A DNA stretch of 64,000 nt. It comes from an uncultured Clostridia bacterium. Lineage in GTDB: Bacteria; Aerophobota; Aerophobia; Aerophobales; AE-B3A. This document shows positions 38,450 to 64,000 of this stretch, one piece after another; the first letter of the stretch is position 1; each line of letters opens with the position of its first letter. The notes under the pieces were generated by a model. The model saw only the letters and a program-made list of their open reading frames with translations, was not told where the DNA came from and did no database searches. Where the stretch lies: assembly GCA_964543295.1 (NCBI GenBank), contig CAZIXA010000002.1, positions 46,410 to 110,409 of the forward strand, written 5' to 3'. Made by a program: the position numbers and the translations under genes.

Positions 38450-38487
38450 CTGGTTTGGATTACGTTTCAAAAACGGGGGAAATTTCG

Positions 38488-40309: not shown

Positions 40310-40326
40310 ACAAGAGGAGCAATAGG

Positions 40327-43196: not shown

Positions 43197-43236
43197 AGCA
43201 GCGGGAAATAAGGAAAGATCACGATGGAAATCAGCT

Positions 43237-45789: not shown

Positions 45790-45822
45790 GAGATTAATTA
45801 ATCTGGGGGAGGATAAGGGAAG

Positions 45823-46947
45823 ATGGAAAAAAAGATATTGGTAACGGGAGGAGCGGGATTTATTGGCTCCTACCTCGTCGATAAATTAATTGAGCTGGGC
45901 TATGAAGTCATGGTTTTCGATAACTTGGAGCCTCAGGTACATGGAGACGGCCAGAAAATACCGGAATATTTAAATAAAGAATGTGAATTTATTAAGGGAG
46001 ATGTCCGAAATAGGGACGAGTTTAAAAAAGCTTTGAAGGGTAGAGAGATCGTTTTTCATCAGGCTGCTGCAGTGGGAGTGGGGCAGTCTATGTATGAAAT
46101 TAATAAATATACCGAGGTTAACATTTTGGGCACGTCGAACTTACTTGATATCCTGGCCAACGAAAACCATCAGGTGGAAAAGCTAATTATCGCTTCTTCA
46201 ATGTCGGTATATGGTGAGGGAAAATATAGCTGTGTTGATTGCGGAGTAGTTTATCCCAAATTGAGGTCGTTATCACAACTCAAAGAAGGAGAGTGGGAAA
46301 TGAGGTGTCCTTTCTGTAACCAGGAAGTACAAAGTTTACCTACGGATGAAGAGAAGCCACTCTATCCCACTTCTATTTATTCCATTTCCAAGAGGGACCA
46401 AGAGGAGATGTGCTTAACCATCGGAAGAGCCTACTGTATTCCCACCGTGGCCTTGAGATACTTCAATGTTTATGGCCCCAGACAAGCACTGTCCAATCCT
46501 TATACCGGGGTAGCAGCCATATTTTCTTCCCGTATTTTAAATAACCACCCACCCTGTATCTTTGAAGACGGTTTACAGTCCCGGGATTTTACCCATGTCA
46601 GTGACATCGTTCAGGCTAACCTTCTGGCTATGGAGAGCAATGATGCAGATTACGAGGTTTTTAATGTGGGTACAGGTCGGCCTTTAACAGTTTTGAGTAT
46701 CGCCGAGGCTCTTATCAAAAGCCTTAACTCATCAGTGGATATGAATATAGTGAGAAAATATAGAGAAGGGGATATCAGGCACTGCTATGCTGATATTTCT
46801 AAAATTCGGGACCAACTTGGTTTCCAGCCCAAAGTGAAATTCGAAAAGGGTATTTCTGAGTTCGTTGGTTGGGTACGAGGTGAGAAGGCTAGGGATCAAT
46901 TTGAAAAATCGAGAAGAGAATTGGAGGAAAAAGGATTAGCAGTCTAA
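45823..46947 (+). CDS. NAD-dependent epimerase/dehydratase (SDR) carrying a CxxC…CxxC zinc-ribbon insertion.
   Basis: GGAGFIGSYL, the YxxxK motif (YSISK), and an inserted CVDCG…CPFCNQ segment. Confidence 0.7.
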   Translation: MEKKILVTGGAGFIGSYLVDKLIELGYEVMVFDNLEPQVHGDGQKIPEYLNKECEFIKGDVRNRDEFKKALKGREIVFHQAAAVGVGQSMYEINKYTEVNILGTSNLLDILANENHQVEKLIIASSMSVYGEGKYSCVDCGVVYPKLRSLSQLKEGEWEMRCPFCNQEVQSLPTDEEKPLYPTSIYSISKRDQEEMCLTIGRAYCIPTVALRYFNVYGPRQALSNPYTGVAAIFSSRILNNHPPCIFEDGLQSRDFTHVSDIVQANLLAMESNDADYEVFNVGTGRPLTVLSIAEALIKSLNSSVDMNIVRKYREGDIRHCYADISKIRDQLGFQPKVKFEKGISEFVGWVRGEKARDQFEKSRRELEEKGLAV

Positions 46948-49685: not shown

Positions 49686-49923
49686 CTGATGGTATACCGG
49701 ATACCCTACTCTACTGGCTGCGAACGAAGCAAACTCGGTAGTCGCCGGTAGCCGCAGGCTTCAGCCTGCGTAAAACCTTAGCCTGTGTTTATGCGCATCC
49801 TAAAGGGTGCGGCTACCCGCTCTATTCTTTGCAATCAACAACATGGAACGTCCTTCACTTTACCTCATAAATATGATCCGAGCTCTTGAAGGAATAGTGC
49901 GGTATGCTTGCAAATGTAGGATT

Positions 49924-49953
49924 TGACTTTTCAAAGAATACAGTTATTATAGC
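49924..49953 (+). promoter_or_regulatory. Sigma70-like promoter (TTGACT-N17-TATTAT) upstream of the GT4 gene.
   Basis: TTGACT at 49924-49929, TATTAT about 17 nt downstream. Confidence 0.4.
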
Positions 49954-50009
49954 CCATAAATGAGATATTAGTGCTTGGAAGAGAAGCACTTTTTGGCTTG
50001 ACCACATCC

Positions 50010-51236
50010 ATGAAGAAGTTGCGAATATGTATGATTACGACCTTTTATCCTCCATATCATACGGGAGGCTGTGGAATTCACGTATATCATCTATCAAATT
50101 TGCTTGCTCAGCAGGGTCACCAGGTGGAGGTTATTCACTGTATCGATTCCTATTTTACTAAGAGACAGACCAAGCAAAAAGGCAGGTATGAAAAGCATAT
50201 AAATCTAAAAGTTCACGGGATAAAAAGTGGCGTAGGCCGAATAGCACCCACCATTACTTATCTAACTGGCTATCCTGTTTTGGTAGGTAATAAAATTAGA
50301 AGAATCTTTACTAAAGGTTTTGATGTTATTCATTACCATAATATTTCGCTGCTTGGTGGGCCAGCCGTGTTAAGCTTTGGAGATGCCATAAAACTCTTTA
50401 CCCTTCACACGTACTGGTTAATCTGCCCTACTCACTACCTATGGAAATTTAATCGTGAAATTTGCCAGAGTAAAGAGTGCTTGAAATGCTTGATCTTTTA
50501 TGGGAAGTTGCCACCTCAACTCTGGAGGTACTTAAACCTGAGGGATAAGATGCTCAAAAATGTGGATGTACTTATCGCACCCAGCCAGTTTCTCAAATCT
50601 AAGCATGTAGAGGAGGGTATTAAAAACCGCCTGGACTGGATACCCCATTTTGTTTTTCCTCCTCGAGAAAATGATACGCTGAAGGAAGAAAACACTACAT
50701 TAGATCTAAAAAATCTTATTCCTTATTTTTTGTATGTGGGACGTTTAGAGCCTAATAAAGGGGTACAGGTCTTAATAGAAGCTTATACTAAGAAGATGAG
50801 AAAAAGTAGGCTATTGGTCGCTGGTGAGGGCACGTATTGCCAGACTCTCAAGCAACAGGCCAGAAATAACCCTAATATAATATTCCTCGGCCAGCTTCCA
50901 CACCAGAAGCTCGCATCTCTGTACAGGAATGCTCTGGCTTTAATCATACCTTCTCTTTGGCCTGAGATTATTACCTTGGTGGTTATAGAGGCGATGTCTC
51001 ATGGTATTCCTGTTGTAACTACTGGCAATGGAGGTTTAATGGAAGTTGTTGATGGCAATAAAGCAGGGATTATCTATGGGGAGGTAGACGAATTGGTTGA
51101 TGCTCTGGACCTCATTGAAGATAATCGAGATCTGAGAAATGAGTTAGCAGCTAACGCCTCGAATGCATACCAGAAATATTATTCACCAGAGGCTTATCTT
51201 CATAAATATTATAGCTTGATAAATAAATTCCTCTAG
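50010..51236 (+). CDS. Glycosyltransferase family 4 (GT-B, retaining).
   Basis: The GT4 C-terminal signature (EAMSHGIPVVTTGNGGLMEVV). The ORF track opens at GTG 49971, but ATG 50010 matches the conserved N-terminus (MKKLRICMITTFYPP). Confidence 0.8.
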   Translation: MKKLRICMITTFYPPYHTGGCGIHVYHLSNLLAQQGHQVEVIHCIDSYFTKRQTKQKGRYEKHINLKVHGIKSGVGRIAPTITYLTGYPVLVGNKIRRIFTKGFDVIHYHNISLLGGPAVLSFGDAIKLFTLHTYWLICPTHYLWKFNREICQSKECLKCLIFYGKLPPQLWRYLNLRDKMLKNVDVLIAPSQFLKSKHVEEGIKNRLDWIPHFVFPPRENDTLKEENTTLDLKNLIPYFLYVGRLEPNKGVQVLIEAYTKKMRKSRLLVAGEGTYCQTLKQQARNNPNIIFLGQLPHQKLASLYRNALALIIPSLWPEIITLVVIEAMSHGIPVVTTGNGGLMEVVDGNKAGIIYGEVDELVDALDLIEDNRDLRNELAANASNAYQKYYSPEAYLHKYYSLINKFL

Positions 51237-51268: not shown

Positions 51269-52381
51269 TTGGTGGTCAAAAGATTGAGTAGAGAGCTTAT
51301 CTGGAAATATCTACCTCTTGCCATAACTGGTTTTTATGATTACCAGATAAAGGTTCATTTCAGCAGGATTCTACCTCCCAGAACGCTCATATTTCCCGTA
51401 ACCTATCGATGTAATTCACGATGTCTCATGTGCAATATATGGAAAAAGGATCGAAAACCAGAGATGAGTTTAAAAGAGCTGGAAGTGGCCTTCTCAGATA
51501 ATTTATTTAGAAAAATCCAAAATGTTAACATCACCGGCGGAGAACCAACCTTACGGAAAGACCTGAGTCAGATTGTCCGATTGCTCGTAAGGAAGATGCC
51601 AGAATTAAGAAAGATTACCCTTACCACAAATGCCCTTAATGTAAGTAGTGTAGTTACTTCTTCTGCAAAAATATCAGAAATTTGCCGTGAGAAAGACATT
51701 GATTTCCTGGTGGGAATCTCCCTGGATGGCATTGGTGAGGTTCATGATGAGATAAGAAATGTTCCGAGAGCTTTTGAGAGGACTAGCCAAACTATTTTGA
51801 AAGTTCAGGAACTTCAACAACTTCATCATAATAGGATGAGGTTAAACGTTAACTGTACCATAACCAAAAAAAATCTACCCGATCTGGAAAATCTTATTGA
51901 TTGGTGCAGTCGACATAATGTCTATGTCAACTTCATAATTGCTGAGTTTTCCGAAAACTACTATTCGAACGAAGGTGTAGAGAAGCAATTGCGGATCGAA
52001 GACGAGGACATGGATTATTTTCTGAGTTTTCTCCAAAAACTAGCAGCGGAGAAATCGCTTTTCAACTTGTCAGCCTATTTTTACAGTGACATGCTAGAAG
52101 TAATTAAGAACAATAAAGCAAGAACGGCTCCCTGTATCTTCTGGTTTGACGGATTTGTCTTTGACATCTACGGGGATCTTTATTACTGCATTCTCTGGGA
52201 TAAGATTGGAAACTGCCGTGACAAAAGTTGCAGTAGTATCTATTATGATCCTAAGAATGTTCTCTACCGGAAAGATCTTTTAAGAACAAAGTGCGCCAAC
52301 TGCACCAGCAGTTGTTTTCTAGAAATAGCGACCGGGAAAGAGCTAATCAAATACTTGAAGTTTCTATTATTTTACCATTAG
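51269..52381 (+). CDS. Radical SAM protein with a C-terminal Cys-rich (SPASM/twitch-like) region.
   Basis: CxxxCxxC (YRCNSRCLMC) near the N-terminus and C-terminal cysteines (CANCTSSC). Confidence 0.7.
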   Translation: MVVKRLSRELIWKYLPLAITGFYDYQIKVHFSRILPPRTLIFPVTYRCNSRCLMCNIWKKDRKPEMSLKELEVAFSDNLFRKIQNVNITGGEPTLRKDLSQIVRLLVRKMPELRKITLTTNALNVSSVVTSSAKISEICREKDIDFLVGISLDGIGEVHDEIRNVPRAFERTSQTILKVQELQQLHHNRMRLNVNCTITKKNLPDLENLIDWCSRHNVYVNFIIAEFSENYYSNEGVEKQLRIEDEDMDYFLSFLQKLAAEKSLFNLSAYFYSDMLEVIKNNKARTAPCIFWFDGFVFDIYGDLYYCILWDKIGNCRDKSCSSIYYDPKNVLYRKDLLRTKCANCTSSCFLEIATGKELIKYLKFLLFYH

Positions 52382-52393
52382 GAAGGGTAAGGT

Positions 52394-53134
52394 ATGGCAG
52401 AAATAGATATAAACGTAGATCAAAGGATGGTAATTTCTGAAGCTGGCACACGTGAAAATTTCCATAAGTATATTGAGCGAGTAACCGGTCAACGATCTTT
52501 CGGTCCCTTCCTTTGTCAGGAGCTCATCTTTGCCCTCTTTGCTAATCTGCCCACCGCCTTGGGTTCGGTACTCAGGACCGTTGTTTATCGCTCGTTTCTG
52601 GGAAAGATGGGTTCAAATTGCTTTATTGAAGAAGGTGTTCGTCTTAGAATACCCCAGAAGATTTTTCTTGGGGATCGAGTATTCATAGGAAAAAACTGTG
52701 ACATAGATGTTGAGTATCTTGATAGCGAGATAAGGATTGGTGATGACGTGCATATATCGCGTGACACTATAATCTTAGCTGGGATAGGTAAAACTATCAT
52801 CAATGAGAGTGTCAGCATAGGTGCAGGTAGTTTTATTTATGGATCCGGTGGGGTTGAAATTGGTAGGGATTCGCTTTTGGCTGATCATGTAAGAGTAATG
52901 GCTGGAAGCCACAAATATAAAGACGTATCCAAATTAATACGTCTTCAAGGAGCATGTTTGAAAAAGACAACCATTGGCCGAGATGTATGGTTAAGCTCGT
53001 CAACCATAGTTTTAGGAGGAGTCACAGTTGGTGATGGAGCAGTAGTGGGAGCAGGTGCAGTAGTGAGCAAAGATATACCCAGTTACAGTATCGCCGTGGG
53101 TGTACCGGCAAAGGTTATCGGAAAAAGAGAGTAA
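52394..53134 (+). CDS. Hexapeptide-repeat (LbH) acetyltransferase, sugar N-/O-acetyltransferase-like.
   Basis: Multiple hexapeptide repeats (IGDDVHI, IGAGSFI, IGRDVWL, VGDGAVVGAGAVV). Confidence 0.75.
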   Translation: MAEIDINVDQRMVISEAGTRENFHKYIERVTGQRSFGPFLCQELIFALFANLPTALGSVLRTVVYRSFLGKMGSNCFIEEGVRLRIPQKIFLGDRVFIGKNCDIDVEYLDSEIRIGDDVHISRDTIILAGIGKTIINESVSIGAGSFIYGSGGVEIGRDSLLADHVRVMAGSHKYKDVSKLIRLQGACLKKTTIGRDVWLSSSTIVLGGVTVGDGAVVGAGAVVSKDIPSYSIAVGVPAKVIGKRE

Positions 53135-53168
53135 ATCGTAGTAAATTATTAAAGATGGTAAACACTGA

Positions 53169-54074
53169 ATGAGAGAAATGTTGCAAGTAAGAAAAAGAGT
53201 TATAAAGTGGATTCTTCAGGGTCTCTTGATTGCTGTAATTTTCTATTTTTTGGCAAGAAACTTATACGTCAACTGGAACAAGATTGTCGAGTATGACTGG
53301 AATATAAACTACTACTTCCTGGCATCCTCGTTGGTCCTTTCCATAGTAGGTGCTTTCTTGATAGCTCTTGGATGGAACTTGATACTGAGAGTGCTGGGGG
53401 GCAGGCTAGGATACAAAAGAGCCCTTAAGATTTTTTTCATTACTGATTTGGCTAAATATGTGCCTGGTAAAGTATGGACTATAGCCGGAAAGATTTATCT
53501 ATGTACAAAAGAAGGTATTTCCCTTGCTAAGACATCAGCAAGCGTGGTTATCCAACCCTTGATACAGGTAATAACCGGAATATTAATGTTTCTCGTCTCT
53601 CTTCCATTCTGGACGAAAACCAGCGATTTTATGAACAAACTTTACTTTTTTTTCCCCCTGATTCCCATTGGTTTGGTTCTTCTGCACCCGGCCATAATGA
53701 CTAAGCTACTCAATTTTGTGTTGACCAGATTAAAACAAAAACCGATAGAGTTAAACACAAAATACAGAGATATATTATTAATCTTGCTCTTATGGTGTGG
53801 TTTATGGACTTTATCAGGGATTACCTATTACTTTTTGATTATTTCAGTACAGTCTTTTCCTGTTTCATGGTTGCCAGTGACGATTGGCATCTTTTCGATA
53901 GCTGGAGTATCTCAATTTTTGACACCCTCTGGCATAGGAGTACTGGAAGGTGTGCTAACAGTCTTGCTTAGTCTGTATCTTCCTGTACCCATAGCTATTC
54001 TTATCGCACTTTTAGCTCGGGTTTGGAAAACAGTGACTGAACTAGTATGCGTAGCGATTACTGTGAAGTTTTAA
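53169..54074 (+). CDS. Flippase-like domain membrane protein (lysylphosphatidylglycerol-synthase TM-region family, PF03706-like).
   Basis: Eight predicted transmembrane helices and the motif KIFFITDLAKYVPGKVW. Confidence 0.6.
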   Translation: MREMLQVRKRVIKWILQGLLIAVIFYFLARNLYVNWNKIVEYDWNINYYFLASSLVLSIVGAFLIALGWNLILRVLGGRLGYKRALKIFFITDLAKYVPGKVWTIAGKIYLCTKEGISLAKTSASVVIQPLIQVITGILMFLVSLPFWTKTSDFMNKLYFFFPLIPIGLVLLHPAIMTKLLNFVLTRLKQKPIELNTKYRDILLILLLWCGLWTLSGITYYFLIISVQSFPVSWLPVTIGIFSIAGVSQFLTPSGIGVLEGVLTVLLSLYLPVPIAILIALLARVWKTVTELVCVAITVKF

Positions 54075-54199
54075 ATTTTTTGTAAAATGTATTCATGGAA
54101 AAATCTCGATATATCCTTGACGAGATTTCTTGGTTGTTATAAGCTACATTTAGCGTTTTAGGAAAACTGAACTACAGTCCAGAACGGAGGATATTCAGT

Positions 54200-55630
54200 A
54201 TGTCCAATTCCAAAGTACTTTTAATTAGTCCACAAATAGATTATGCAAAAATGTTTGGAAAAGCAAGCGCAACTACCCCCTCGATGATTCCCTTAAACTT
54301 ACTATATCTGTCCGCGTATTTAGAGGGTAAAAACATTCCCGTAAAAGTACTGGATGGGCAAGTAAATGACTTGAGTGAGGAGAGTTTAATAAGGCATATT
54401 AAACAATTCAACCCAAACATTGTGGGCATAAGTTGCCATACACCATTAGTATATCTTGCTCATAGAATTGCCAAGACGGTAAAAAGCGCTTCCCGTCAAA
54501 TAACAGTCATTATGGGGGGTCCTCATCCGAGTGTACTTCCTGACGAGACAATAGCTGATGAGAATGTTGATATAGTAGTTAGAGGTGAGGGTGAAATCAC
54601 ACTTTTTGAGTTGGTAAAAGCGATTGAAAGCGGCACTAATCTAAATTTAATTCTGGGGATAACGTATCAGGATAACGGAAATATTGTCGCTACTGCAGAT
54701 AGGCCTTTAAACACGGATCTTGATTCGCTGCCCCTTCCTTCAAGACATCTCGTCCCTATCAGGGAATATCACCCTCAAGCAGATATTTACTACCGATTCC
54801 CCTGGACTATTATGCTTACCTCCAGAGGATGTCCATACAAATGTATATTTTGCGCTTCCAGGCGAATCTCAGGACATAAATATCGAGTGAGAAGTCCAGA
54901 AAAGGTTGTTGAAGAAATCGACGTCCTGGTAAACCAATATGGCATTAGAAATATCGGCATAGCCGATGATAACTTTGTTGTCGACAGAAAGAGGACAGAG
55001 CGAATATGTGATATACTTATTAAGGAGGGCTACCACCGAAGAGTGGACTGGGTGTGTGCACTCAGAGCAGATGGGGTTGATAAGCCTCTCCTGAAAAAGA
55101 TGAGAGCCGCAGGCTGCAAATGTATCTGTGTCGGTATTGAAACAGGGTCTCAGCGGTTGATGAATATTCTTAAAAAGCATCTTAAGTTAGAAAAAGTGGA
55201 GGAAGGGGTCAGAATGATGAGGGAAGCAGAAATCAAAGTCCGGGGCACTTTTTTGCTGGGAATTCCAACAGAGACAGAGGAGGAAACGCTACAGACCGTA
55301 CATTTTGCTAAGAAATTAAGTCTCGATTTTGCTAAGTTTAATATTATTACTCCCTATCCAGGCACAGAATTGTATGAAATGGCTAAGGACAGAGACTTGG
55401 TCGCGGACGATACGTGGTCCAGGTTAATTCCAGGCATCGGATTCAGTGAGGCAGAGCCGGTCTTTGTGCCTAAGGGAAGAAATCCCAAAGAGTTAAAAGC
55501 CAAGCAACAAAGAGCTACCAGGACATTCTATTTTCGGCCGCGGCCAATTTGGAATTTAGCTAATAACATACGATCCTTTGATGATTTTAAGCGGTATTTT
55601 TATGCGGCAAAATTATTGCTGAAATGGTAG
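54200..55630 (+). CDS. B12-binding-domain radical SAM protein (class B, COG1032-type), paralog 1.
   Basis: An N-terminal cobalamin-binding Rossmann-like domain and CxxxCxxC (SRGCPYKCIFC). Confidence 0.8.
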   Translation: MSNSKVLLISPQIDYAKMFGKASATTPSMIPLNLLYLSAYLEGKNIPVKVLDGQVNDLSEESLIRHIKQFNPNIVGISCHTPLVYLAHRIAKTVKSASRQITVIMGGPHPSVLPDETIADENVDIVVRGEGEITLFELVKAIESGTNLNLILGITYQDNGNIVATADRPLNTDLDSLPLPSRHLVPIREYHPQADIYYRFPWTIMLTSRGCPYKCIFCASRRISGHKYRVRSPEKVVEEIDVLVNQYGIRNIGIADDNFVVDRKRTERICDILIKEGYHRRVDWVCALRADGVDKPLLKKMRAAGCKCICVGIETGSQRLMNILKKHLKLEKVEEGVRMMREAEIKVRGTFLLGIPTETEEETLQTVHFAKKLSLDFAKFNIITPYPGTELYEMAKDRDLVADDTWSRLIPGIGFSEAEPVFVPKGRNPKELKAKQQRATRTFYFRPRPIWNLANNIRSFDDFKRYFYAAKLLLKW

Positions 55631-55666
55631 CCCTCCATCGAGAGGAACAAATACGGGAAAATCACT

Positions 55667-56410
55667 ATGGACATCAGTATGTATCAGGATTTTTACAACC
55701 TCGAAGAAAAGCACTGGTGGTTTCTTGGTCGTCGCAAGATTGTCTTCTCTATGTTAAATAAGTATTTACCAAATGGAAGCCAGTTAAGAATACTCGATGT
55801 GGGTTGTGGTACAGGTGCTACTTTAAGGAAATTGGAAAAATATGGCCATGCTACCGGTGTAGATATATCTGAAGAGGCAGTCAAGTTCTGTAAATTGCGC
55901 GGCTGCAGGAACGTGTATAAAATTGACAAACAAGGCCTTTTCTTTGAAGATTACACGTTTGACGTGGTTGTTGCCCTGGATGTTATTGAGCATATTACTG
56001 ATGATTGCGCTGCCTTATCGGAATATTACCAAATTACCAAACAAAATGGAATTTTGGTAGTTACCGTACCTGCCTATAATTTCCTTTGGGGAGCTCACGA
56101 CGAAATAAACCATCATAAGAGAAGATATACTGCTAAGGAGTTAAAGAATAAAGTTGAAAAAGCGGAATTCGCTGTCAAAAAGCTAACTTATTTTAACACA
56201 TTCTTGTTCCCATTCGTTCTTCTAGCCAGAATGAGTCAACGGGTGACCAAAATGATAAATGGCAGGTATAAACTTCGATCTGATCTCAAACTGCATCATT
56301 CAGGTATAAATGATATTTTGAAAACCGTATTCTTTCTTGAAAACCGATTCTTAAAAGAATATAATTTTCTATACGGTGTATCATTGTTATGTGTGGCAAA
56401 AAAGAGTTAA
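55667..56410 (+). CDS. Class I SAM-dependent methyltransferase.
   Basis: Motif I LDVGCGTGA and a post-I acidic residue (GVDISEE). Confidence 0.8.
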   Translation: MDISMYQDFYNLEEKHWWFLGRRKIVFSMLNKYLPNGSQLRILDVGCGTGATLRKLEKYGHATGVDISEEAVKFCKLRGCRNVYKIDKQGLFFEDYTFDVVVALDVIEHITDDCAALSEYYQITKQNGILVVTVPAYNFLWGAHDEINHHKRRYTAKELKNKVEKAEFAVKKLTYFNTFLFPFVLLARMSQRVTKMINGRYKLRSDLKLHHSGINDILKTVFFLENRFLKEYNFLYGVSLLCVAKKS

Positions 56411-58074
56411 TATCTGTAAATGCGAGAAGCAAGTCGTCCCGATTGCTCAAAAATGAGGATTTCATACTGGTTGGTTTCTTAACCCTGGTGGCACTTACCA
56501 TTAGGCTGATATCTTTGCATTTTTACCATTTTATTGGGATAGACGGTGGGGTAGATGGTGTTGGCTATGCTATTAGTGGCAAAAACCTCTTTTGGGGGCT
56601 GGGTTATTCCTTTCAGGGTCATCCTCAGTTAGTTAACCCTCCTTTCTATCCTGTATTAATTGGAATTTCATGGCTCTTTACCCATAATCTGGAATTTTCC
56701 GGTCAGATAGTGTCTGTCATTGCCGGAAGTTTGCTGGTTATACCCGTTTTTTACTTAGCAAAAGAGATGTATACAAGAGAAACGGGGATATGGTCTGCTA
56801 TCTTTGTTGCTGTCTGTCCTCCTCTAATATTCGGCTCCACTGAGGTTCGTGTTGCCTCGTTGTATACACTACTGTTGTCGGCGATGGTAGCTATCGGATG
56901 GAGGGCTCTACGAAGTAAATATCTATTTTGGTCTGCACTCACCGGTCTAATGTTAGCTTTATGTTATCTGACCCGTGCAGAAGCTATTATGTTTCTAGTT
57001 ATCTTTCTTCTTCTCTACCTACTTTTGTTTAAACTCAATATTGGCTTATCCTCATTCACAATAAAGACAATTATATTAAAAACCACTGTTCTCATAACAG
57101 TCTTTGTGTTAGTTTCATTTCCTTTTTGGCATTTCTTGCATCGTCACACAGGCAGATGGACACTTAGTGGAAGAGGCCCTTATACCTTCATTGGCTACTA
57201 TGGAGGTGATTGGGAGAAAGTCAATTTTGAGCTGGCCTCGAATCCAGAAGCAGCGCAGTTAAAATGGTTGAACCAAGGTGGGTTGCTGAATTTTGTCATA
57301 TCTAATCGCCATAAGCTACTGGCAAGATGGGAACGCAATATAGTGAGCATATGGTCTGGTCAGGATAAACAGGCTCAGCTGTTAAGAATCCCACGTTGGG
57401 TATTGAGAGGTGGGCTAATCCTCTTAACATTATTTATCGGCTTTGCATTCATTAAATTTATTCGGGCCCGACATATAGCGGCAAAGCATATTTATCTACT
57501 TATCATAGTTTCTTCTTCTCTCATCTATTTTTTCTTCGCCATTGATTGGCGCTATTTCTATCCTTATATTCCCTTTTTCTTAATTGGACTCGCACGAATA
57601 ACAACCATCATTCAAAACCGGCCCAGAGAGAGTCTTACCTCTGGGAACAGAACTCTTACTAAGTTTTTTGTATGTTCCCCGGTAGTGATACTTTTAGCAG
57701 GTATGAGCTATTATTCAGGGGTTCTAATAGGGAAGAAAGTGAATTACGCTCCTTATGAATACAAAATAATGGGCCAATGGATGAAAGAAAACATAGATGA
57801 TATTGAAAATAAGATTGTAATGTCCAGGAAACTGGGGGTGTCTTTCTACGGGGGAGCGAAGCACGAGCCCCTCTACTATGGTGAATACCCGGGATTAATT
57901 ACCTATGCAAGGTCTAAAAAAGTTGATTATTTGGTAATAGACCAATGGACAATTCCGAAAACCAGACCTCAGTTTGCCTTCTTGCTGAAAGAAGACCAAA
58001 AGCATCCAGGATTAAAGCTGGTTCACAAAGTAAGATATAAAGATCGAAAAACAATACTCTACAAAATTGAATGA
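56389..58074 (+). CDS. GT-C-type polytopic membrane glycosyltransferase (ArnT/GT39/GT83-like).
   Basis: About 12 transmembrane helices, a first-loop DGG/VDGVGY region, a C-terminal soluble domain, 561 aa. Confidence 0.6.
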   Translation: MCGKKELISVNARSKSSRLLKNEDFILVGFLTLVALTIRLISLHFYHFIGIDGGVDGVGYAISGKNLFWGLGYSFQGHPQLVNPPFYPVLIGISWLFTHNLEFSGQIVSVIAGSLLVIPVFYLAKEMYTRETGIWSAIFVAVCPPLIFGSTEVRVASLYTLLLSAMVAIGWRALRSKYLFWSALTGLMLALCYLTRAEAIMFLVIFLLLYLLLFKLNIGLSSFTIKTIILKTTVLITVFVLVSFPFWHFLHRHTGRWTLSGRGPYTFIGYYGGDWEKVNFELASNPEAAQLKWLNQGGLLNFVISNRHKLLARWERNIVSIWSGQDKQAQLLRIPRWVLRGGLILLTLFIGFAFIKFIRARHIAAKHIYLLIIVSSSLIYFFFAIDWRYFYPYIPFFLIGLARITTIIQNRPRESLTSGNRTLTKFFVCSPVVILLAGMSYYSGVLIGKKVNYAPYEYKIMGQWMKENIDDIENKIVMSRKLGVSFYGGAKHEPLYYGEYPGLITYARSKKVDYLVIDQWTIPKTRPQFAFLLKEDQKHPGLKLVHKVRYKDRKTILYKIE

Positions 58075-58748
58075 GACCTCCAATTATGTTAAGCAAGATT
58101 CCGTCTGAGTTGTTCGGCCTTTATTCTAACCTGGGAGTTAAAGCAGCATCATATGCACCTCTGCGTTGGCGTTTGTGTCCGTTTGAGGAGATAGAGAAAC
58201 ATGTCCCTGAGGAAGGAACAATTATTGACATAGGTTGTGGATATGGCCTACTGGCTAATTTTTTAGTCTTAAGGTCGAGCAAAAGAGATGTCACCGGGAT
58301 AGACCTTTCAGTGGGAAGAATTAGGGTAGCCCAAAAAACTACCGATAATCGAAAGAAAGTCCAATTCAAGCTTATGAATGCACTTGATTTGCAATCAGGA
58401 GAGTACAGTACTGTAGTAATGAGCGACTTTCTGCATCATATTGATTACCAAGCCCAGGAAGAACTACTGGTTCGTTGTTATCAAAAACTGCCCCCCGGGG
58501 GGCTTCTCATTATCGAAGAAGTGGATAATAGACCGCTCTGGAAATATTGGTTTGCCGTCATCAACGACAAGATCCTGAACGTTGGTGAGCGGCAGTTTTT
58601 TCGTGGCCGCCATGAATTCCAGGAGCTTTTGCAGAGAATCGGCTTTTTGGTGAGGACAAAGAAAGTAGATAAAGGTATCCCGCTATCTGATATTCTATTC
58701 ATATGTAGAAAGAAAGGCAGTTCAACAACCTCTTCAAGAACCTTATAA
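58071..58748 (+). CDS. Class I SAM-dependent methyltransferase.
   Basis: Motif I IDIGCGYGLL and a post-I GIDLS segment. Confidence 0.8.
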   Translation: MRPPIMLSKIPSELFGLYSNLGVKAASYAPLRWRLCPFEEIEKHVPEEGTIIDIGCGYGLLANFLVLRSSKRDVTGIDLSVGRIRVAQKTTDNRKKVQFKLMNALDLQSGEYSTVVMSDFLHHIDYQAQEELLVRCYQKLPPGGLLIIEEVDNRPLWKYWFAVINDKILNVGERQFFRGRHEFQELLQRIGFLVRTKKVDKGIPLSDILFICRKKGSSTTSSRTL

Positions 58749-58801
58749 TTAAAGAGAAAGGCAGGGAATCCGTCGAACTCACGGAGGAAATTTTAAGGTA
58801 T

Positions 58802-58975
58802 GGGAATTTGAATAATTTCTCTGAATTGTTATCAAGTAAACCTCGGCAGACGAGATATCAGAAAAAAGAGGGGAGCAGGCTCGACTTGCTCGAGCGAAGC
58901 GAGAGTCGGCTTTGCCGATCGAGCCGTCGAGGGGGGAATTCCGAAGGAATCGGCGAAGCCCTATTTCCCCTCTCA
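58802..58975 (+). repeat. Structured repeat element, copy 2 (see 21802-21977).
   Basis: About 95% identity to copy 1 over roughly 175 nt. Stem 1 is retained with a C-to-T change that gives a G-U wobble; the terminal stem 2 is degraded. Confidence 0.7.
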
Positions 58976-59000
58976 ATATGTTCGAGATGGAATTGAAGGT

Positions 59001-59777
59001 ATGATCATAATACTATTGCCAGCTTACAATGAGGCATCTGGTATTGAAGAGCTACTTGGTAGAATAGGAGAAGTGCTTAACTATAACGAATATCAGGTTA
59101 TAGTGGTAAATGATGGGAGCACCAATGGAACAAAAGAAATCGTTACTAAATGCGCTCAACGGCAACCGATCACTTTACTAAATCATCGAGTTAACCTGGG
59201 GCTGGGGAAGGCTATGGAAACGGGTATTTTGTATACTTGTTCTCACTTCAAAAGCAATGATATATTAGTAACTATGGATGCCGATAACACCCATGATCCC
59301 CAGATGATAAAACAAATGGTCCAGAAAGTCGACAACGGGGTAGATATGGTGATTGGTTCTCGTTTCGTTAAGAAAAGTGGGGAGATAGGTGTCCCTACGT
59401 ATCGCAAGCTACTCAGCAGAGCGGTGAAAATCCTGTTAAGAGTGATTTTCCCTGGGGTCAAGGTAAAGGATTACACCAGTGGTTACCGAGTATATCGGGT
59501 TAGTCTACTTAAGAAGGCACTAAAAGTTCACCATCCATTAGTCAAATCACGAGGATTTGGGGTAATGGCAGAGCTACTTTTGAAACTAAATTGCCTAAAG
59601 CCTTTGGTAGTTGAGGTGCCCCTGGTATTACACTATAACCATAAAACGGGCAAAAGTAAGATCAAAATTTTGTCAACGGTGATTGAATATGGGAAGATGA
59701 CCTTTGACCTGAAAAGAGAGGAAATCCTGGGTCACTGGAGAGTCGATAATCTAAGGAATATTCATAATGGCCGCTGA
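59001..59777 (+). CDS. GT2-family polyprenyl-phosphate glycosyltransferase (DPM1/ArnC/GtrB-like).
   Basis: LLPAYNE…VIVVNDGSTNGT…TMDADNTHDP (DxD). Confidence 0.8.
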   Translation: MIIILLPAYNEASGIEELLGRIGEVLNYNEYQVIVVNDGSTNGTKEIVTKCAQRQPITLLNHRVNLGLGKAMETGILYTCSHFKSNDILVTMDADNTHDPQMIKQMVQKVDNGVDMVIGSRFVKKSGEIGVPTYRKLLSRAVKILLRVIFPGVKVKDYTSGYRVYRVSLLKKALKVHHPLVKSRGFGVMAELLLKLNCLKPLVVEVPLVLHYNHKTGKSKIKILSTVIEYGKMTFDLKREEILGHWRVDNLRNIHNGR

Positions 59778-59789
59778 GAAGAAAAAGTT

Positions 59790-60164
59790 ATGAGGATATT
59801 CGATATTCTTGCCATCTTCGTTTCTGTTTGTTTTGCTGTTGTCGGGCAACTACTGTTGAAGATGGGAATGTTACGCATTGGTAGATTTTCCCTTAATATT
59901 TCTACCATAGTACAACAATATGCCAGAATCCTTTTGAATCCCTTTGTCATAGCCGGAATTGTTAGTTTTGCCCTGAGTATGCTGGTTTGGCTGTATGTGC
60001 TCTCAAAGCTGGAGCTTAGCATTGCCTTCCCATTCGTTGCGCTCAACTATGTCCTGATATTATTCGTCTCCCATTTTTTACTTAAAGAGACGATTACTCC
60101 CGTTAAGATCATGGGCGTGGCCGTGATTGTACTCGGGGTTTTTTTGATTTCAAGAGGTGGTTGA
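59790..60164 (+). CDS. Small 4-TM DMT/SMR-like membrane protein (ArnE/ArnF- or GtrA-like flippase subunit).
   Basis: Four transmembrane helices, 124 aa, the GQLLLK motif, and a position immediately downstream of the ArnC-like GT2. Confidence 0.6.
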   Translation: MRIFDILAIFVSVCFAVVGQLLLKMGMLRIGRFSLNISTIVQQYARILLNPFVIAGIVSFALSMLVWLYVLSKLELSIAFPFVALNYVLILFVSHFLLKETITPVKIMGVAVIVLGVFLISRGG

Positions 60165-60227
60165 AGGAACCACTAAGTCGAATAGGATCTTCGGGAGTCT
60201 CAGATAGAAGTTAGAAGGATAACGCAG

Positions 60228-61433
60228 GTGAAGGTACTGGTAACAATCTTTGAAGAGTTGGTTCCCGTAACTGGTGGAGGGACCCCAAGAATATCAAATA
60301 TAATAAAGGCTCTGGTCAGGAAAGAACACGAAGTTTATGTCGCCTCGTCTATTGGGGTGAGAAAAGAGAATGCCATTGAGCAGATGGGGTGTGTTGGTCT
60401 GGGGCCTCTTTTGAAGGTGAGTCGCTTAAGTTCAAAAAAAATGGTAAAGTATCTGTATGCTCATCCCCTGAATATATGGCGAGTGGTAAAATATGCCAGA
60501 AAAATAAAACCCGATCTGATTATCTCTCATAACACTATCGCTGGGTTTGCTGCGCTTTTGGCAAAACGGTTCCAAAAAGACTGCCTTGTGGTTTTGGATC
60601 TGACCGATCTACTATTTGAGTATCTGGGAGACTATTACCCTGGGGGATGGATGAGGTTAGTTCAACTTGAGGGAAAGCGTCTGGAAAGAAATACCATTAG
60701 AGAATCGGACAAAATAGTTACCGTTAGCAATTCCATGAGGGATATTCTTTTGACCTATGGCGCAAAGTTAGAAAATATTGAGGTGATTTGTGATGGAGTG
60801 GACACGAAGATTTTTAAACGGACATATGAGAGTGAACTGAGGAATAAATTTGGCAAGGATGCCGAAGATATTGTTATATTTCAAGGAGTAATCGATCCTC
60901 AGGACAATCCCCAGATTATTTTAGATGCAGCCAAGGAGGTGTTGAAGAAACACCGCCAGACAATGTTTTGGATAATAGGGGATGGAACAGCCCTGCCCAA
61001 GCTCAAACAAAAAGTTGTTGAGGAGAATTTAGCCGAGTATTTCTATTTTTCAGGATGGGTCAAGCAAGAAGAAGTAGCTCACTACATCTCAGCTAGCGAC
61101 ATTGGACTTGTCATTCTTCCGGACAGCTTGTCGGCCCGGGGCAGGGTAACCCTTAAGGAATTCGAGTATTGGGCTTGCGGTGTTCCCGTTGTTGCTCCTC
61201 AACTGTCAGCGCTTGAAGAGGTGGTTGAGGACGGAAAGACAGGTTTTTTCTGGCAACCAGGTAACTTTAAGGATCTTGCCCAGAAGATAATGCTTCTCAT
61301 TGAAAGCAAAGATATGAGAAAGAAAATGGGACAAAAGGGGGTGGAGGTGGTCAAAGAGAAATTCGAATGGCAGAAATTGACCAATCATTATGTAAAGGTT
61401 TGCGAGAATTTCGTGAAGAGGATACAGGAATGA
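60228..61433 (+). CDS. Glycosyltransferase family 4 (GT-B).
   Basis: The GT4 C-terminal EX7E-like region (EFEYWACGVPVVAPQLSALEEVVEDGKTGFFW). Confidence 0.75.
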   Translation: MKVLVTIFEELVPVTGGGTPRISNIIKALVRKEHEVYVASSIGVRKENAIEQMGCVGLGPLLKVSRLSSKKMVKYLYAHPLNIWRVVKYARKIKPDLIISHNTIAGFAALLAKRFQKDCLVVLDLTDLLFEYLGDYYPGGWMRLVQLEGKRLERNTIRESDKIVTVSNSMRDILLTYGAKLENIEVICDGVDTKIFKRTYESELRNKFGKDAEDIVIFQGVIDPQDNPQIILDAAKEVLKKHRQTMFWIIGDGTALPKLKQKVVEENLAEYFYFSGWVKQEEVAHYISASDIGLVILPDSLSARGRVTLKEFEYWACGVPVVAPQLSALEEVVEDGKTGFFWQPGNFKDLAQKIMLLIESKDMRKKMGQKGVEVVKEKFEWQKLTNHYVKVCENFVKRIQE

Positions 61434-62872
61434 GAGTCTTATTGATAGTGCCTGGGACTTACTCTTGGAGGTATCCCGGCCCTATTCAGCCTCATACTGG
61501 GATAGCTTACCTAGCGGCGATTTTGAAGAAGAATAGAATTGAAGTGAAAATATTGGATATGTGCTTGAGAGACCATACTAGACAGCTTTTTCCAACTCTT
61601 GATATTTTTCGTCCGCAACTAATAGGTATAACGGTATTTAGTCTTCACTATAAAAGAGTTTATGACTTGATCCATAAGATTAAGAATCAGGGGAAGTACC
61701 AGGTTGTTCTTGGTGGTCCTCATATCTCAGCCATTAGAGATGCAGCGCTGAGGAAAAGCGAGGCAGATTTTGCCATAAAAGGAGAGGGAGAGAAGACTTT
61801 ACTTGAGTTATGTAAGGCCGTAGGAGAACCGCATCCTGATTACAGTAACATTGAAGGACTAATTTGGAGATCTGAGCACGGCGTGGTAGAGAATAACGAT
61901 AGGCCCTTTATTGATAACCTGGACGCTCTTCCTTTTCCCGCCTATGAGGAGTTTCCGTTAGAAAAGTATTTTTGTTATAAGGACAAAACCCTATCTATCA
62001 TTACCTCCAGAGGATGTCCACGGCGCTGCATTTTCTGTTCGGTTAGACTTTCTACGGGAGGGAAATTCAGACCTCGAAGTCCAGAAAATTTGGTGGCCGA
62101 AATAAAACACTGGTATGAACAAGGATGGAAAAGTTTCGAGTTTCAAGATGACAATTTTACCTGTGATATGAACAGAGCGAAGAGAATTTGTGAGCTCCTG
62201 GTCAGTAAAAACTTGGCTATTAGATGGTCTTTACCGAACGGGGTCCGGGCAGATAAACTTGACAGAAAACTGCTAGAAAAAATGAGGGAATCCGGGTGCT
62301 TCCGGATTGCATTGGGTGTCGAGTCTGCCGATAACGATGTCCTCCGGAAAATAAAAAAGGGGACCAAAATTGAGCAAGTTGAAGAGACTGTAAAAATAAT
62401 TAAGCAGGTGGGAATAGAGGTAGTGGGTTTTTTCATTGTGGGTCATCCTACTGAGACCTATGAACGGTTTATGGAAAGTGTTGATTTTGCCAGACGTATG
62501 TCATTTGATCAGGCGAGCTTTTGGAATCTGGTTCCCTACCCGGGGACAGAGCTTTTGGAATGGGTAAGGGATAATGCAGTCTTACTTTATCCGGAAGAGG
62601 TTTATCTTAATCGAGCCTCTTATTGTGAAGGCAGGCCAATTTTTGAAACGGCTGATTTTTCTGCGAAAGAAAGAAGAAAAGCATGGAAGTTTGGCCATTC
62701 CTTAGAGAGAAAAACTATTGCCTACGGGAAAATGGGCATGTTCTGGGGAGGTGTTGGCTTGGTCATATCTTCAATCCCCATTTTGGAACGAATCCTGGTC
62801 CGATTAATAAAGGCAAACCAAATAGGTAGATTTTACTATGAAGTCTTATCTTCTTGGATAGAAAAGATATAG
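61430..62872 (+). CDS. B12-binding-domain radical SAM protein, paralog 2.
   Basis: MRVLLIVPG…, CxxxCxxC (SRGCPRRCIFC). ATGA overlap with the GT4. The ORF track opens at 61367, but ATG 61430 is the likely start. Confidence 0.8.
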   Translation: MRVLLIVPGTYSWRYPGPIQPHTGIAYLAAILKKNRIEVKILDMCLRDHTRQLFPTLDIFRPQLIGITVFSLHYKRVYDLIHKIKNQGKYQVVLGGPHISAIRDAALRKSEADFAIKGEGEKTLLELCKAVGEPHPDYSNIEGLIWRSEHGVVENNDRPFIDNLDALPFPAYEEFPLEKYFCYKDKTLSIITSRGCPRRCIFCSVRLSTGGKFRPRSPENLVAEIKHWYEQGWKSFEFQDDNFTCDMNRAKRICELLVSKNLAIRWSLPNGVRADKLDRKLLEKMRESGCFRIALGVESADNDVLRKIKKGTKIEQVEETVKIIKQVGIEVVGFFIVGHPTETYERFMESVDFARRMSFDQASFWNLVPYPGTELLEWVRDNAVLLYPEEVYLNRASYCEGRPIFETADFSAKERRKAWKFGHSLERKTIAYGKMGMFWGGVGLVISSIPILERILVRLIKANQIGRFYYEVLSSWIEKI

Positions 62873-62925
62873 AGTAAGTACTGGTGGTAAATAGTACTCC
62901 TTGAAAATTACCGGAGGTGTTGATT

Positions 62926-64000
62926 ATGAAAGTTCTGGTTACCAATCCTCCCTGGCCAGGATCAGGATATGGAGCCAGGTCAGATGTGAGATGGCCGCAC
63001 AAGAGAAGCGACAAGTTTATAGAATATCCTATCTATTTGGCTTATGTGGTAGCGGTTTTGGAGAAGGCAGGGATCGAGGTGGAGTTTATCGACGCAGTAG
63101 TAGAGGAGATGTCCATACCGGATTTTGCTGATGCCGCAGCAAAAATTAATCCCAATATGGTGGTTATTGAATGCTCAACTCCTTCAATTCAATATGATCT
63201 TTTGACGGCTAAGAGTCTAAAAGAGAGGATGAGCGATGTTTTCATAGTCTTGGTCGGCTCTCACCCCACTTTCTTCCATAGTCAGATTATGAAGGAAAAT
63301 CCCCAGATTGATGCCATTTGTAGAGGAGAGTTTGATTTGACAGTTAAAGATGTGGCAGTGGCTCTTTCAAATGGAGATAAACTTGATGAAGTAAAAGGGA
63401 TTACCTATAGAAATAAGGAAGGAATCCAGGTAAATGAAGATCGTCCCTTGATCCAAGACCTTGATGAGCTACCCTTTCCGGCCAGGCATATTGTAAAGGG
63501 CGATAACTATAGACAGGGTACTTTTACCGGTAAACGCTGTACCACTATGGTTAGCTCCCGAGGGTGTCCCCATCGCTGCACCTATTGTCTGTGGCCGAGA
63601 ACCTTGTACGGCAGCCGATTCAGGGCTAGAAGTGCGGAAGACGTGGTAGCTGAGGTGGAGCAGCTAACAAGAGATTATCACATTGATGAGATCTATTTTG
63701 ATGACGATTCCCTGGCTCTGAATCGAGCACGAATATTAAGAATTTGTCGACTGATCAATCAAAAAGGCATCAAGGTTAAATGGATACCTCAGTGTCGAGT
63801 GGACAGCATGGATGAAGAAGTTCTTAGGGCTATGAAAGAAGCAGGCTGCCATTACATAAGGTTTGGAGTGGAGTCGGGTTCCCAAAAGATACTCGATATT
63901 ATGAAGAAGGGAACCACCTTAGCTAAGATTAGGCGTGCTTTTGATTTATGTCGGAAGGTGGGCATAAAAACCCAGGCATTTTTCTTATTTGGGATTCCGG
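62926..64000 (+). CDS. B12-binding-domain radical SAM protein, paralog 3, 3'-partial (runs off the window).
   Basis: GGAGGTG RBS lies upstream of ATG 62926. MKVLVTNPPWPGSGYGAR… and CxxxCxxC (SRGCPHRCTYC). The frame is open to 64000. This gene is absent from the ORF track. Confidence 0.8.
   Translation, partial: MKVLVTNPPWPGSGYGARSDVRWPHKRSDKFIEYPIYLAYVVAVLEKAGIEVEFIDAVVEEMSIPDFADAAAKINPNMVVIECSTPSIQYDLLTAKSLKERMSDVFIVLVGSHPTFFHSQIMKENPQIDAICRGEFDLTVKDVAVALSNGDKLDEVKGITYRNKEGIQVNEDRPLIQDLDELPFPARHIVKGDNYRQGTFTGKRCTTMVSSRGCPHRCTYCLWPRTLYGSRFRARSAEDVVAEVEQLTRDYHIDEIYFDDDSLALNRARILRICRLINQKGIKVKWIPQCRVDSMDEEVLRAMKEAGCHYIRFGVESGSQKILDIMKKGTTLAKIRRAFDLCRKVGIKTQAFFLFGIP

Follow-up and report, generated by a model that had tools for sequence, protein, structure and literature searches.

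A 64,000-nucleotide stretch of DNA from an uncultured Clostridia bacterium (assembly GCA_964543295.1, contig CAZIXA010000002.1, positions 46,410 to 110,409 of the forward strand), referred to here in its full length as the window, ends in a glycan gene island whose distal part contains four genes for radical S-adenosylmethionine (SAM) proteins. From position 49971 to the end of the window all genes lie on the plus strand and are densely spaced. The window proteins were annotated by Pfam and NCBIfam profile searches. Three of the radical SAM proteins carry a B12-binding domain, and these paralogs are termed B12a (54200–55630; PF02310 E=3e-22, PF04055 E=1e-23), B12b (61430–62872; PF02310 E=2e-18, PF04055 E=9e-30) and B12c (62926–64000, cut by the window end; PF02310 E=5e-19, PF04055 E=5e-22). 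The fourth (51269–52381; PF04055 E=1.3e-14) has no B12 domain and shows a C-terminal cysteine cluster of the SPASM/twitch type. An earlier note, made from the sequence alone, had described four radical SAM proteins, three of them with a B12 domain, in a co-directional island, and the PF02310 and PF04055 matches, all on the plus strand, bear this out. Pfam matches likewise support other genes that it listed, namely two class I SAM methyltransferases, MTa (55667–56410; Methyltransf_11 E=1e-18) and MTb (58071–58748; Methyltransf_23 E=7e-18), a WcaF-like hexapeptide (LbH) acetyltransferase (52394–53134; Hexapep E=1e-16), two family 4 glycosyltransferases (GT4), GT4a (49971–51236; Glycos_transf_1 E=2.5e-31, Glyco_transf_4 E=2.7e-16) and GT4b (60228–61433; Glycos_transf_1 E=3e-24), and a polytopic, flippase-like membrane protein of the PF03706 family (LPG_synthase_TM/YbhN/HpnL-type; 53169–54074; E=1.7e-25). 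The set is completed by a GT-C membrane glycosyltransferase that is PMT_2/ArnT-like (56389–58074; PMT_2 E=2e-10), a family 2 glycosyltransferase (GT2) resembling polyprenyl-phosphate sugar synthases of the Dpm1/ArnC/GtrB/PpgS type (59001–59777; Glycos_transf_2 E=3e-27), and a small EamA/ArnF-like transporter of 124 amino acids with four transmembrane segments (59790–60164; EamA E=1.5e-10).

Radical SAM genes thus make up four of about 13 genes in the distal island, against a genomic background of a few percent. Since the density is well above that background and the arrangement is kept in other genomes, as described below, the clustering is not attributed to chance. Scans of the window for promoters and terminators gave signals that were not clearly above shuffled expectation, and for that reason no operon boundaries are claimed. 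Neither a tRNA scan nor Rfam at its gathering thresholds, with the cobalamin riboswitch among the models, gave a match in the window. The largest gap in the distal island, 253 bp between 58748 and 59001, has no Rfam match, and a perfect G+C palindrome, GCCCCCCGGGGGGC, is located at 58490–58503 within the coding sequence of MTb. Gene content beyond position 64000 was inferred from two related loci, L002 and L005.

With pairwise identities of 35%, 34% and 29%, B12a, B12b and B12c are old paralogs and not recent duplicates. In all three an N-terminal PF02310 domain precedes the radical SAM core (PF04055), and a CX3CX2C motif is present (GCPYKCIFC, GCPRRCIFC and GCPHRCTYC, the last in the context SRGCPHRCTYC in B12c); residues C211, C215 and C218 of B12a are invariant among 25 homologs. 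The start of B12b is taken to be 61430 and not 61367, as the NCBI protein has 480 amino acids. The class B radical SAM architecture of the paralogs is established. HpnJ (TIGR03471) is the top NCBIfam match of all three, with 235 bits for B12a, 173 bits for B12b and 242 bits for B12c, but each misses the HpnJ equivalog cut-off of 577.6 bits. BchE is the runner-up of both B12a and B12c and ApyD, a radical SAM enzyme of peptides made by the ribosome and modified after translation (RiPPs), is the third match of B12a (191 bits). The runners-up of B12b are a P-methyltransferase family (167 bits, below its cut-off), ApyD and PhpK. Families of C-methylases (HpnR, KedN5, TsrM-type and RiPP C-methylases) score ∼60–110 bits against the paralogs.

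The solved structures nearest in sequence are AprD4, MgmA (9ccb), OxsB, CysS, TokK and TsrM, and an AlphaFold2 model of B12a (pLDDT 90.6) matches the fold of the same six proteins with E values of 1e-19 to 4e-27 and TM scores of 0.64–0.75. The best match is AprD4 (TM score 0.73–0.78, E=4e-27), a sugar diol dehydratase whose substrate is a soluble aminoglycoside and which, despite its B12-type domain, uses no cobalamin. The nearest relatives of the paralogs are AprD4 and the putative sugar ring-contraction enzyme HpnJ and not the C-methylases. The earlier note had taken the locus to point to C-methylation or cross-linking of a glycan, for which we find no specific pointer, the resemblance to HpnJ, BchE and AprD4 being greater than that to the C-methylase families; the comparison with characterized class B enzymes that it proposed returned the class B fold but reached the cut-off of no characterized family. 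Reactions catalysed by the paralogs could include cyclitol ring contraction (HpnJ/Cds-like), AprD4-like deoxygenation, C-methylation and epimerization. In the related locus L089 a gene of the URO-D family (6693–7754) lies between PF03706 and B12-domain radical SAM genes, and CobD/CbiB accounts for 3 of the 138 open reading frames (ORFs) that are immediate neighbours of B12-domain radical SAM homologs. The URO-D family includes corrinoid methyltransferases such as MtaA, and these neighbours are a hint of real corrinoid use.

The fourth radical SAM protein (51269) has its CX3CX2C motif at C48/C52/C55 and, towards the C terminus, the cysteine pattern C289-x12-G302-x4-C307, which is of the CX9-15GX4C type, followed by C342-x2-C345-x3-C349, a second motif that is shorter than the canonical CX2CX5CX3C. 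When the protein is aligned with relatives annotated as SPASM proteins, C289, G302, C307, C345 and C349 do not vary. Pfam reports PF04055 alone for this protein, with no match to SPASM (PF13186), and the NCBIfam SPASM families align to residues 37–347 at scores far below their cut-offs. The SPASM label given to it in the earlier note therefore holds at the level of the cysteine motif shared with annotated relatives and not as a Pfam match.

The GT2, small transporter and GT-C genes fall within 3.8 kb (56389–60164). The solved relatives that best match the GT2 protein are all polyprenyl-phosphate glycosyltransferases, led by the Pyrococcus dolichol-phosphate mannose (Dol-P-Man) synthase DPMS (5mlz; E=9e-28 over residues 3–238) and followed by three ArnC structures and GtrB. 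Its NCBIfam matches are PpgS (83 bits), ArnC and Dol-P-hexose transferase, in that order and all below the equivalog cut-offs, and at the level of homology it is assigned as a Dpm1-type enzyme predicted to make a polyprenyl-phosphate monosaccharide. The 59790 protein, which has four transmembrane-like segments, matches ArnF over the full profile length with 73.1 bits (E=3e-20; cut-off 99) and is a candidate subunit of a lipid-linked sugar flippase. The GT-C protein scores 41.5 bits against PMT_2 (gathering score 26.1) and has at least seven transmembrane-like segments; a profile search with its family against the PDB gave no match at E values up to 1. By these homologies the GT2, ArnF-like and PMT_2 GT-C genes are a predicted three-component gene set for periplasmic glycosylation of the Arn/Gtr/PpgS type. 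The lipid-linked sugar module of the earlier note is thus retained in these three genes but loses its second GT-C, the 846-residue protein encoded at 47145–49685 (+), which consists of ∼5 N-terminal transmembrane helices and a large soluble domain. This protein matches no Pfam or NCBIfam family above threshold, its N-terminal 185 residues give no GT-C match at E values up to 10, and its ∼5 transmembrane-like segments compare with at least eight in a polytopic GT-C core, so that it is not recognizable as a GT-C and is assigned to no family. The soluble part has weak, sub-threshold matches to the N- and C-terminal domains of glycoside hydrolase (GH) family 67, and no homolog of the protein was found in any related locus.

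The PF03706 protein has ∼8 transmembrane-like segments and does not match the HpnL model. Its gene may start at 53181, the annotated NCBI protein being 297 amino acids long, and a search for its homologs returned almost only close relatives from sediment, with no new fusions. The LbH acetyltransferase scores 94.5 bits against a subfamily model of the WcaF family, for which the cut-off is 192.

The island is kept in close relatives, in which B12a orthologs are 82–87% identical and the number of radical SAM genes varies from three to seven. Five B12-domain and two other radical SAM genes are found within 21 kb in L002–L004, and L005 has three B12-domain radical SAM genes, no gene of the 51269 type and three GT2 genes past B12c. 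The core common to these close relatives consists of LbH, PF03706, B12a, GT-C, a methyltransferase, EamA, GT4b and B12c. GT4a has a 71% identical ortholog in L002–L004, MTb has orthologs of 54–77% in L002 and L005, and B12b has an 81% identical ortholog in L005 and none in L002. Many variants of the island genes (74–98% identical) are present in sediment metagenomes. The most extreme array of radical SAM genes was seen in L016, from the metagenome-assembled genome (MAG) 'bacterium E14_metabat.bin.161', in which seven B12-domain paralogs occupy ∼13 kb (4718–17900) and are flanked by two EamA genes, a GT2 gene and another radical SAM gene.

The linkage extends to loci in which the B12a or B12c homologs are only 39–64% identical (L006, L035, L086 and L089). 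The most informative is L086, from a MAG of the Planctomycetes–Verrucomicrobia–Chlamydiae (PVC) group (GCA_043804695.1) with a B12a homolog of 39% identity, where LbH, a fused B12-domain radical SAM and PF03706 gene, PMT_2, a GT4 (54% identical to GT4b), a B12-domain radical SAM (63% identical to B12c) and GT2 follow one another in the order seen in the window. The fused gene (P0108; L086:2568–4976) encodes one protein of 802 amino acids with the radical SAM part at the N terminus and PF03706 at the C terminus, directly followed by the PMT_2 GT-C gene; it joins the counterparts of the genes at 54200 and 53169, reversed relative to their order in the window. A second fusion, P0112 (698 amino acids, from a Logan assembly), joins an N-terminal B12-domain radical SAM protein to a class I methyltransferase domain at the C terminus, which shares 28% identity with MTa (E=1e-11), and here the order of domains is that of the genes at 54200 and 55667. 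GT2, B12a (50%), PF03706 (33%), LbH (45%), PMT_2 (38%) and GT4b (49%) occur together in L006, and L035 contains PF03706, LbH, GT4b (54%), B12c (64%) and GT2. Four B12-domain radical SAM genes accompany a SPASM radical SAM gene, a methyltransferase, GT4, LbH, two PF03706 genes and an epimerase in L089 (49%), and in L007 (45%) a Bac_transf initiating transferase lies 0.8 kb downstream. Individual pairings recur as well: GT-C orthologs adjoin the B12a homolog in L002, L005, L006 and L086, LbH homologs (41–45%) adjoin PF03706 in L006, L035 and L086, and GT4b orthologs (54%) are directly upstream of the B12c orthologs in L035 and L086, which are 63–64% identical to B12c as compared with 85–89% in L002–L005. 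Two further fusions were considered and rejected. An apparent PF03706–LbH fusion in L006 is a reading-frame artefact of a long ORF with a GTG start, and an 867-residue PF03706 protein in L035 has no Pfam domain in its N-terminal 570 residues and hence is not a radical SAM fusion.

A census was made of 38 loci from species-representative genomes of bacteria and archaea with homologs 31–50% identical to B12a. Within two genes of the homolog, 19 of 138 ORFs encode a further radical SAM protein (16 of them with a B12 domain), and the same ORFs include 10 GT2, ∼10 class I methyltransferase, 4 PMT_2, 4 GDSL and 2 DegT genes. At a distance of 7–10 kb there are 4 PMT_2, 3 GT4, 2 DegT, 2 GT9 and 2 EamA genes among 99 ORFs. 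The linkage of radical SAM and glycan genes, which the earlier note had postulated, is real, as seen in L002–L005, L006, L035, L086 and L089 and in the two fusions, and its recurrence in distant genomes contradicts the possibility, raised in the same note, that the locus would be conserved only as separate pieces. B12a and B12c probably have distinct roles, since each has orthologs in other lineages. B12b and the extra paralogs of L002 are accessory, which suggests glycan diversification at the strain level. A recurring trio was observed that consists of a polytopic membrane protein of 620–650 amino acids with no Pfam match, a B12a homolog and a SPASM radical SAM protein (L087:8133–14195, L091:8116–14207 and L089:8046–12560, in L089 within a glycan cassette); it could represent a system of its own, RiPP-like or tied to the membrane. 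A reading of its membrane protein, encoded upstream of the B12a homologs, as a TMTC/PMT-like GT-C, suggested by an N-terminal motif ('SDDFV...YRP'), was not confirmed by Pfam at E values up to 10 or by a PDB profile search, and its alignment with the GT-C family of the window by hhalign gave a probability of 0.2%.

The explanation that we favour, at a confidence close to even, is that these genes are the distal half of a strain-variable envelope glycan island and specify an Arn/Gtr-like periplasmic route in which radical chemistry at the membrane tailors a lipid-linked sugar. As a first step the GT2 enzyme (59001), working on the cytoplasmic side, would attach a sugar to polyprenyl phosphate, and the GT4 enzymes could extend the lipid-linked acceptor or build a short lipid-linked glycan. 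The lipid-anchored sugar or glycan would then be tailored at the membrane by the B12-domain radical SAM enzymes and the SPASM/twitch radical SAM enzyme, with methyl and acetyl groups presumably added by the two methyltransferases and the LbH acetyltransferase. In a third step the product would be flipped by the ArnF-like protein (59790), the PF03706 protein (53169) or both, and in a fourth it would be transferred to an envelope acceptor by the GT-C enzyme (56389). The radical SAM enzymes are placed in the cytoplasm because they need SAM and a reductant, and their action on a membrane-anchored sugar is supported by the PF03706 fusion and by the constant proximity of the GT-C gene. The domain content, the identities at the level of homology, the synteny kept across phyla and the two fusions are shown by the data. 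We infer from them a lipid-linked and not a nucleotide-linked substrate, the sequence of the steps, the role in flipping and the kind of radical chemistry.

In known three-component systems a GT2 enzyme makes a polyprenyl-phosphate monosaccharide, a small membrane protein flips it and a GT-C enzyme transfers the sugar outside the cytoplasm. The island resembles ArnC/ArnD/ArnEF/ArnT, GtrA/GtrB/GtrC and the mycobacterial PpgS with its GT-C in having a GT2 that is Dpm1-type by homology, a small ArnF-like membrane protein as candidate flippase and a GT-C, and the proposed modification before flipping has a parallel in the Arn pathway, where ArnD deformylates the lipid-linked sugar Und-P-Ara4FN. 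To our knowledge no three-component glycosylation system contains radical SAM enzymes, and the tailoring set of the island (three B12-domain and one SPASM radical SAM protein, two methyltransferases and LbH) is far larger than in these systems, with PF03706 as an extra component. A second parallel is AprD4-type sugar tailoring, with which the paralogs share the Rossmann and partial TIM-barrel architecture; GenK, DesII and BtrN, like AprD4, carry out radical chemistry on amino or deoxy sugars. In contrast to the paralogs, which are ∼22% identical to AprD4, enzymes of this type serve soluble intermediates in secondary-metabolite clusters of actinomycetes, and they are known neither from envelope-glycan loci that contain GT-C and flippase genes nor as fusions to membrane domains.

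The third parallel is the HpnI/J/K/L module of hopanoid synthesis, in which a B12-domain radical SAM protein, a glycosyltransferase and a protein of the PF03706 superfamily are also clustered. Two radical SAM enzymes, HpnJ and calditol synthase, have been assigned the ring contraction of hexose head groups linked to lipids, in the case of HpnJ from genetics only (PMC13459092). In the hpn cluster HpnJ is accompanied by the GT2 HpnI and by HpnL, a member of the InterPro family of PF03706 (bioRxiv 10.1101/2025.07.29.667474). The hopanoid sugar is carried on a membrane lipid, and acetyl handling falls to HpnK there and to LbH here. Unlike the hopanoid module, the island has paralogs that stay at 173–242 bits against the 577.6 required for HpnJ, a PF03706 protein outside the HpnL model, and at least three such paralogs together with GT-C, an ArnF-like transporter, GT4 enzymes and methyltransferases. 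No hopanoid context (shc/squalene–hopene cyclase (SHC), HpnH, HpnI, HpnG or HpnK) is present in the 64-kb window. The calditol synthase of Sulfolobus, Cds, for which contraction of a lipid-linked hexose head group to a cyclitol has been proposed (PMC13459092), is likened to the paralogs by description and not by sequence; it is archaeal, acts on tetraether lipids, and no glycan-island context is described for it. The island therefore combines a three-component pathway with an HpnIJKL-like module and multiplies the radical SAM enzymes, and in this it differs from both. In the literature covered, with most subscription journals outside, no B12-domain radical SAM protein was found described in O-antigen, exopolysaccharide, capsule or three-component glycosylation loci. 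The TIGRFAMs family 'B12_rSAM_oligo' belongs to an uncharacterized oligosaccharide cassette, and the idea is thus hinted at in annotation.

Several observations weigh against the proposed membrane route. No enzyme of the island passes a curated NCBIfam equivalog cut-off that would establish a substrate. The nearest solved structure, AprD4, belongs to a cobalamin-independent enzyme with a soluble aminoglycoside substrate. The family is huge, with more than 583 relatives matching two short patterns in species-representative genomes of most anaerobic phyla, and the names of these relatives in the source databases are generic (YgiQ or BchE). The window contains no initiating phosphoglycosyltransferase, Wzx, Wzy or ligase that would define the acceptor and the overall type of pathway. 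Enrichment in the census was gauged against general knowledge of glycosyltransferase frequencies and not against a genomic background. Finally, some relatives of B12a (44–48% identical) occur in loci without a glycosyltransferase (L087, L091 and L092): that in L092 lies among giant surface proteins with FG-GAP and FlgD_ig domains, and in L087 (CSSED10-310) and L091 the B12a homolog is accompanied by two TldD/PmbA proteins, an ATP-grasp protein, a polytopic membrane protein of 620 amino acids, a SPASM radical SAM protein, a protein of the 23S_rRNA_IVP family and another radical SAM protein.

One alternative, which we consider unlikely, is that the radical SAM enzymes tailor soluble dTDP- or UDP-sugars before transfer and that the membrane proteins only export the finished glycan. 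In antibiotic pathways, radical SAM enzymes such as AprD4, GenK and DesII have soluble sugar intermediates as their substrates, AprD4 being the closest solved relative of B12a in both fold and sequence, a full nucleotide-sugar set (RmlA/B-like, cupin, DegT, UDP-glucose dehydrogenase and short-chain dehydrogenase/reductase (SDR) genes) lies upstream, and B12c has a close partner in a GT4, an enzyme class with nucleotide-sugar donors. The fusion P0108, however, puts a radical SAM domain at the membrane, and in L086, L006, L002 and L005 B12a adjoins GT-C and PF03706 genes and not nucleotide-sugar genes; the best NCBIfam match, HpnJ, is moreover assigned a lipid-linked substrate (PMC13459092). The loci L087 and L091 raise instead the prospect that a peptide or protein is modified, in RiPP-like fashion or during maturation of a surface protein, with the GT-C O-glycosylating the same target to give a modified glycoprotein. 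Their B12a homologs (47–48%) stand in a RiPP-like set of SPASM radical SAM, further radical SAM, ATP-grasp and two TldD/PmbA protease genes, ApyD ranks third for B12a (191 bits), PMT_2 is also a family of protein O-mannosyltransferases, and a secreted S8 peptidase is kept in the island. Yet the gaps at 49685–49971 and 58748–59001 hold no credible precursor ORF, although short peptides can escape such a check, the island has no pair of leader peptidase and transporter, no RiPP recognition element and no cyclodehydratase, and the small ORFs near L091 resemble toxin–antitoxin genes (a faint ribbon–helix–helix match and a PIN-like reading from sequence alone). The genes linked across lineages are those for GT2, GT4, GT-C, LbH, methyltransferases and DegT, and we regard a peptide or protein target as highly doubtful.

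Equally concerned with the membrane, but in our judgement still a poor prospect, is the alternative that the target is not a polysaccharide but the polyprenyl carrier or the head group of a lipid or glycolipid in the membrane, and that PF03706 flips, for example, a cyclitol- or methyl-bearing glycolipid much as MprF does. B12-domain radical SAM enzymes figure prominently among lipid-modifying enzymes (HpnP/R, GrsA/B, Gmm and HpnJ), and glycolipid synthases are found among GT4 enzymes. A lipid head group is also the substrate of the radical SAM enzyme Cds (PMC13459092), for which B12-domain status was not established here, and PF03706 comprises the flippase domain of MprF and the HpnL family (bioRxiv 10.1101/2025.07.29.667474). 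Genes for lipid synthesis (SHC, HpnH, Tes and lipid acyltransferases) are nevertheless absent from the window, and a glycan that is polymeric or transferred is indicated by Wzz, by the nucleotide-sugar genes, by GT-C and by the several genes for GT2 and GT4; this alternative also overlaps the favoured membrane route and differs from it mainly in the final product. That the radical SAM proteins are generic housekeeping enzymes of the COG1032 type in a recombination-prone island, with no tie to glycans, we consider very improbable. The size of the family, with its more than 583 relatives across most anaerobic phyla under the generic names YgiQ and BchE, and the differences in gene content between close relatives would fit such a view, but gene order is kept in a PVC-group genome in which the homologs are only 39–63% identical, the two fusions are collinear, and glycan genes recur around the homologs in 38 loci of bacteria and archaea. 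The earlier note had itself named ordinary COG1032 oxidoreductases as the alternative to be feared, and its concern is borne out for the large, generic family and for the 44–48% relatives without a glycosyltransferase, and not for the loci elsewhere that are linked to glycan genes; the synteny of L086 and the fusions largely refute the housekeeping explanation.

If the proposed membrane route is correct, radical SAM chemistry enters envelope-glycan biosynthesis at the lipid-carrier stage. Such chemistry on sugars has so far been encountered mainly in antibiotic pathways and on two lipid head groups. A broader and more tentative proposal, to which we lean less than to the route itself, is that a widespread clade of HpnJ/BchE/AprD4-like B12-domain radical SAM enzymes acts at the membrane on polyprenyl-phosphate-linked sugars within three-component systems to make carbocyclic, deoxygenated or C-branched sugars, and that gain and loss of paralogs (three to seven) diversifies the surface glycans of uncultured anaerobic bacteria and archaea. 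The membrane route, if correct, would also give a first functional context to a very large set of 'COG1032/BchE-like' genes that abound in anaerobes from sediment and the subsurface, among them Omnitrophota, Bathyarchaeia, DPANN archaea, PVC-group bacteria and Aerophobetes, and would suggest a role for membrane proteins of the PF03706/HpnL type, whose part in hopanoid clusters has yet to be settled. Unusual sugars or cyclitols would be predicted in the envelopes of these organisms and could be biomarkers or determinants recognized by phages or the immune system. As the cassette is compact (GT2, B12-domain radical SAM, PF03706 and GT-C), it can be tested by heterologous expression.

The upstream part of the island (33973–46947, plus strand) comprises nucleotide-sugar genes, Wzz and a secreted S8 peptidase. 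In order, its genes encode DegT (33973), an SDR (35177), UDP-glucose dehydrogenase (36192), a second SDR (37520), RmlA-like (39236) and RmlB-like (40327) proteins, a cupin (41549), Wzz (42120), the S8 peptidase with BACON and FlgD_ig domains (43237) and a further SDR (45823), so that the nucleotide-sugar genes (DegT, UDP-glucose dehydrogenase, SDRs, RmlA/B-like and cupin) are as the earlier note had described them. Cupin, Wzz, SDR and S8 genes are also found in L005; of these, the S8 and SDR genes alone were seen in L002, at the edge of the locus. The S8 peptidase (43237–45789, plus strand), which carries its BACON and FlgD_ig domains at the C terminus and takes the same position in L002 and L005, could be a glycoprotein target or a protein with a sorting domain. 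Just upstream of DegT, an 802-residue polytopic protein (31237–33645, plus strand) has ∼8 transmembrane helices at each end and a spermidine-synthase-like centre (PF01564, E=1e-4, narrowly below threshold).

Outside the island the window resembles any ordinary bacterial chromosome and encodes valyl-tRNA synthetase (ValRS), an M16 peptidase, ABC transporters of the Opp type and for sugars, and the arabinofuranosidases GH127 and GH51. ValRS is 64–65% identical to its counterparts in Candidatus Aerophobetes MAGs, 54–55% to those in Nitrospinota and up to 94% to relatives from sediment metagenomes. The source, an uncultured sediment bacterium, is probably related to Aerophobetes. Next to ValRS, where the housekeeping region gives way to the glycan island, lies a gene for an IS200/Y1-type transposase (27807–28496, plus strand). 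The G+C content falls to 0.34–0.38 at 14000–20000, compared with ∼0.43 elsewhere in the window, and genes for an ArsR-family regulator and for a sugar ABC transporter lie in this segment, shortly ahead of the GH127/GH51 arabinofuranosidase genes (19677–23540).

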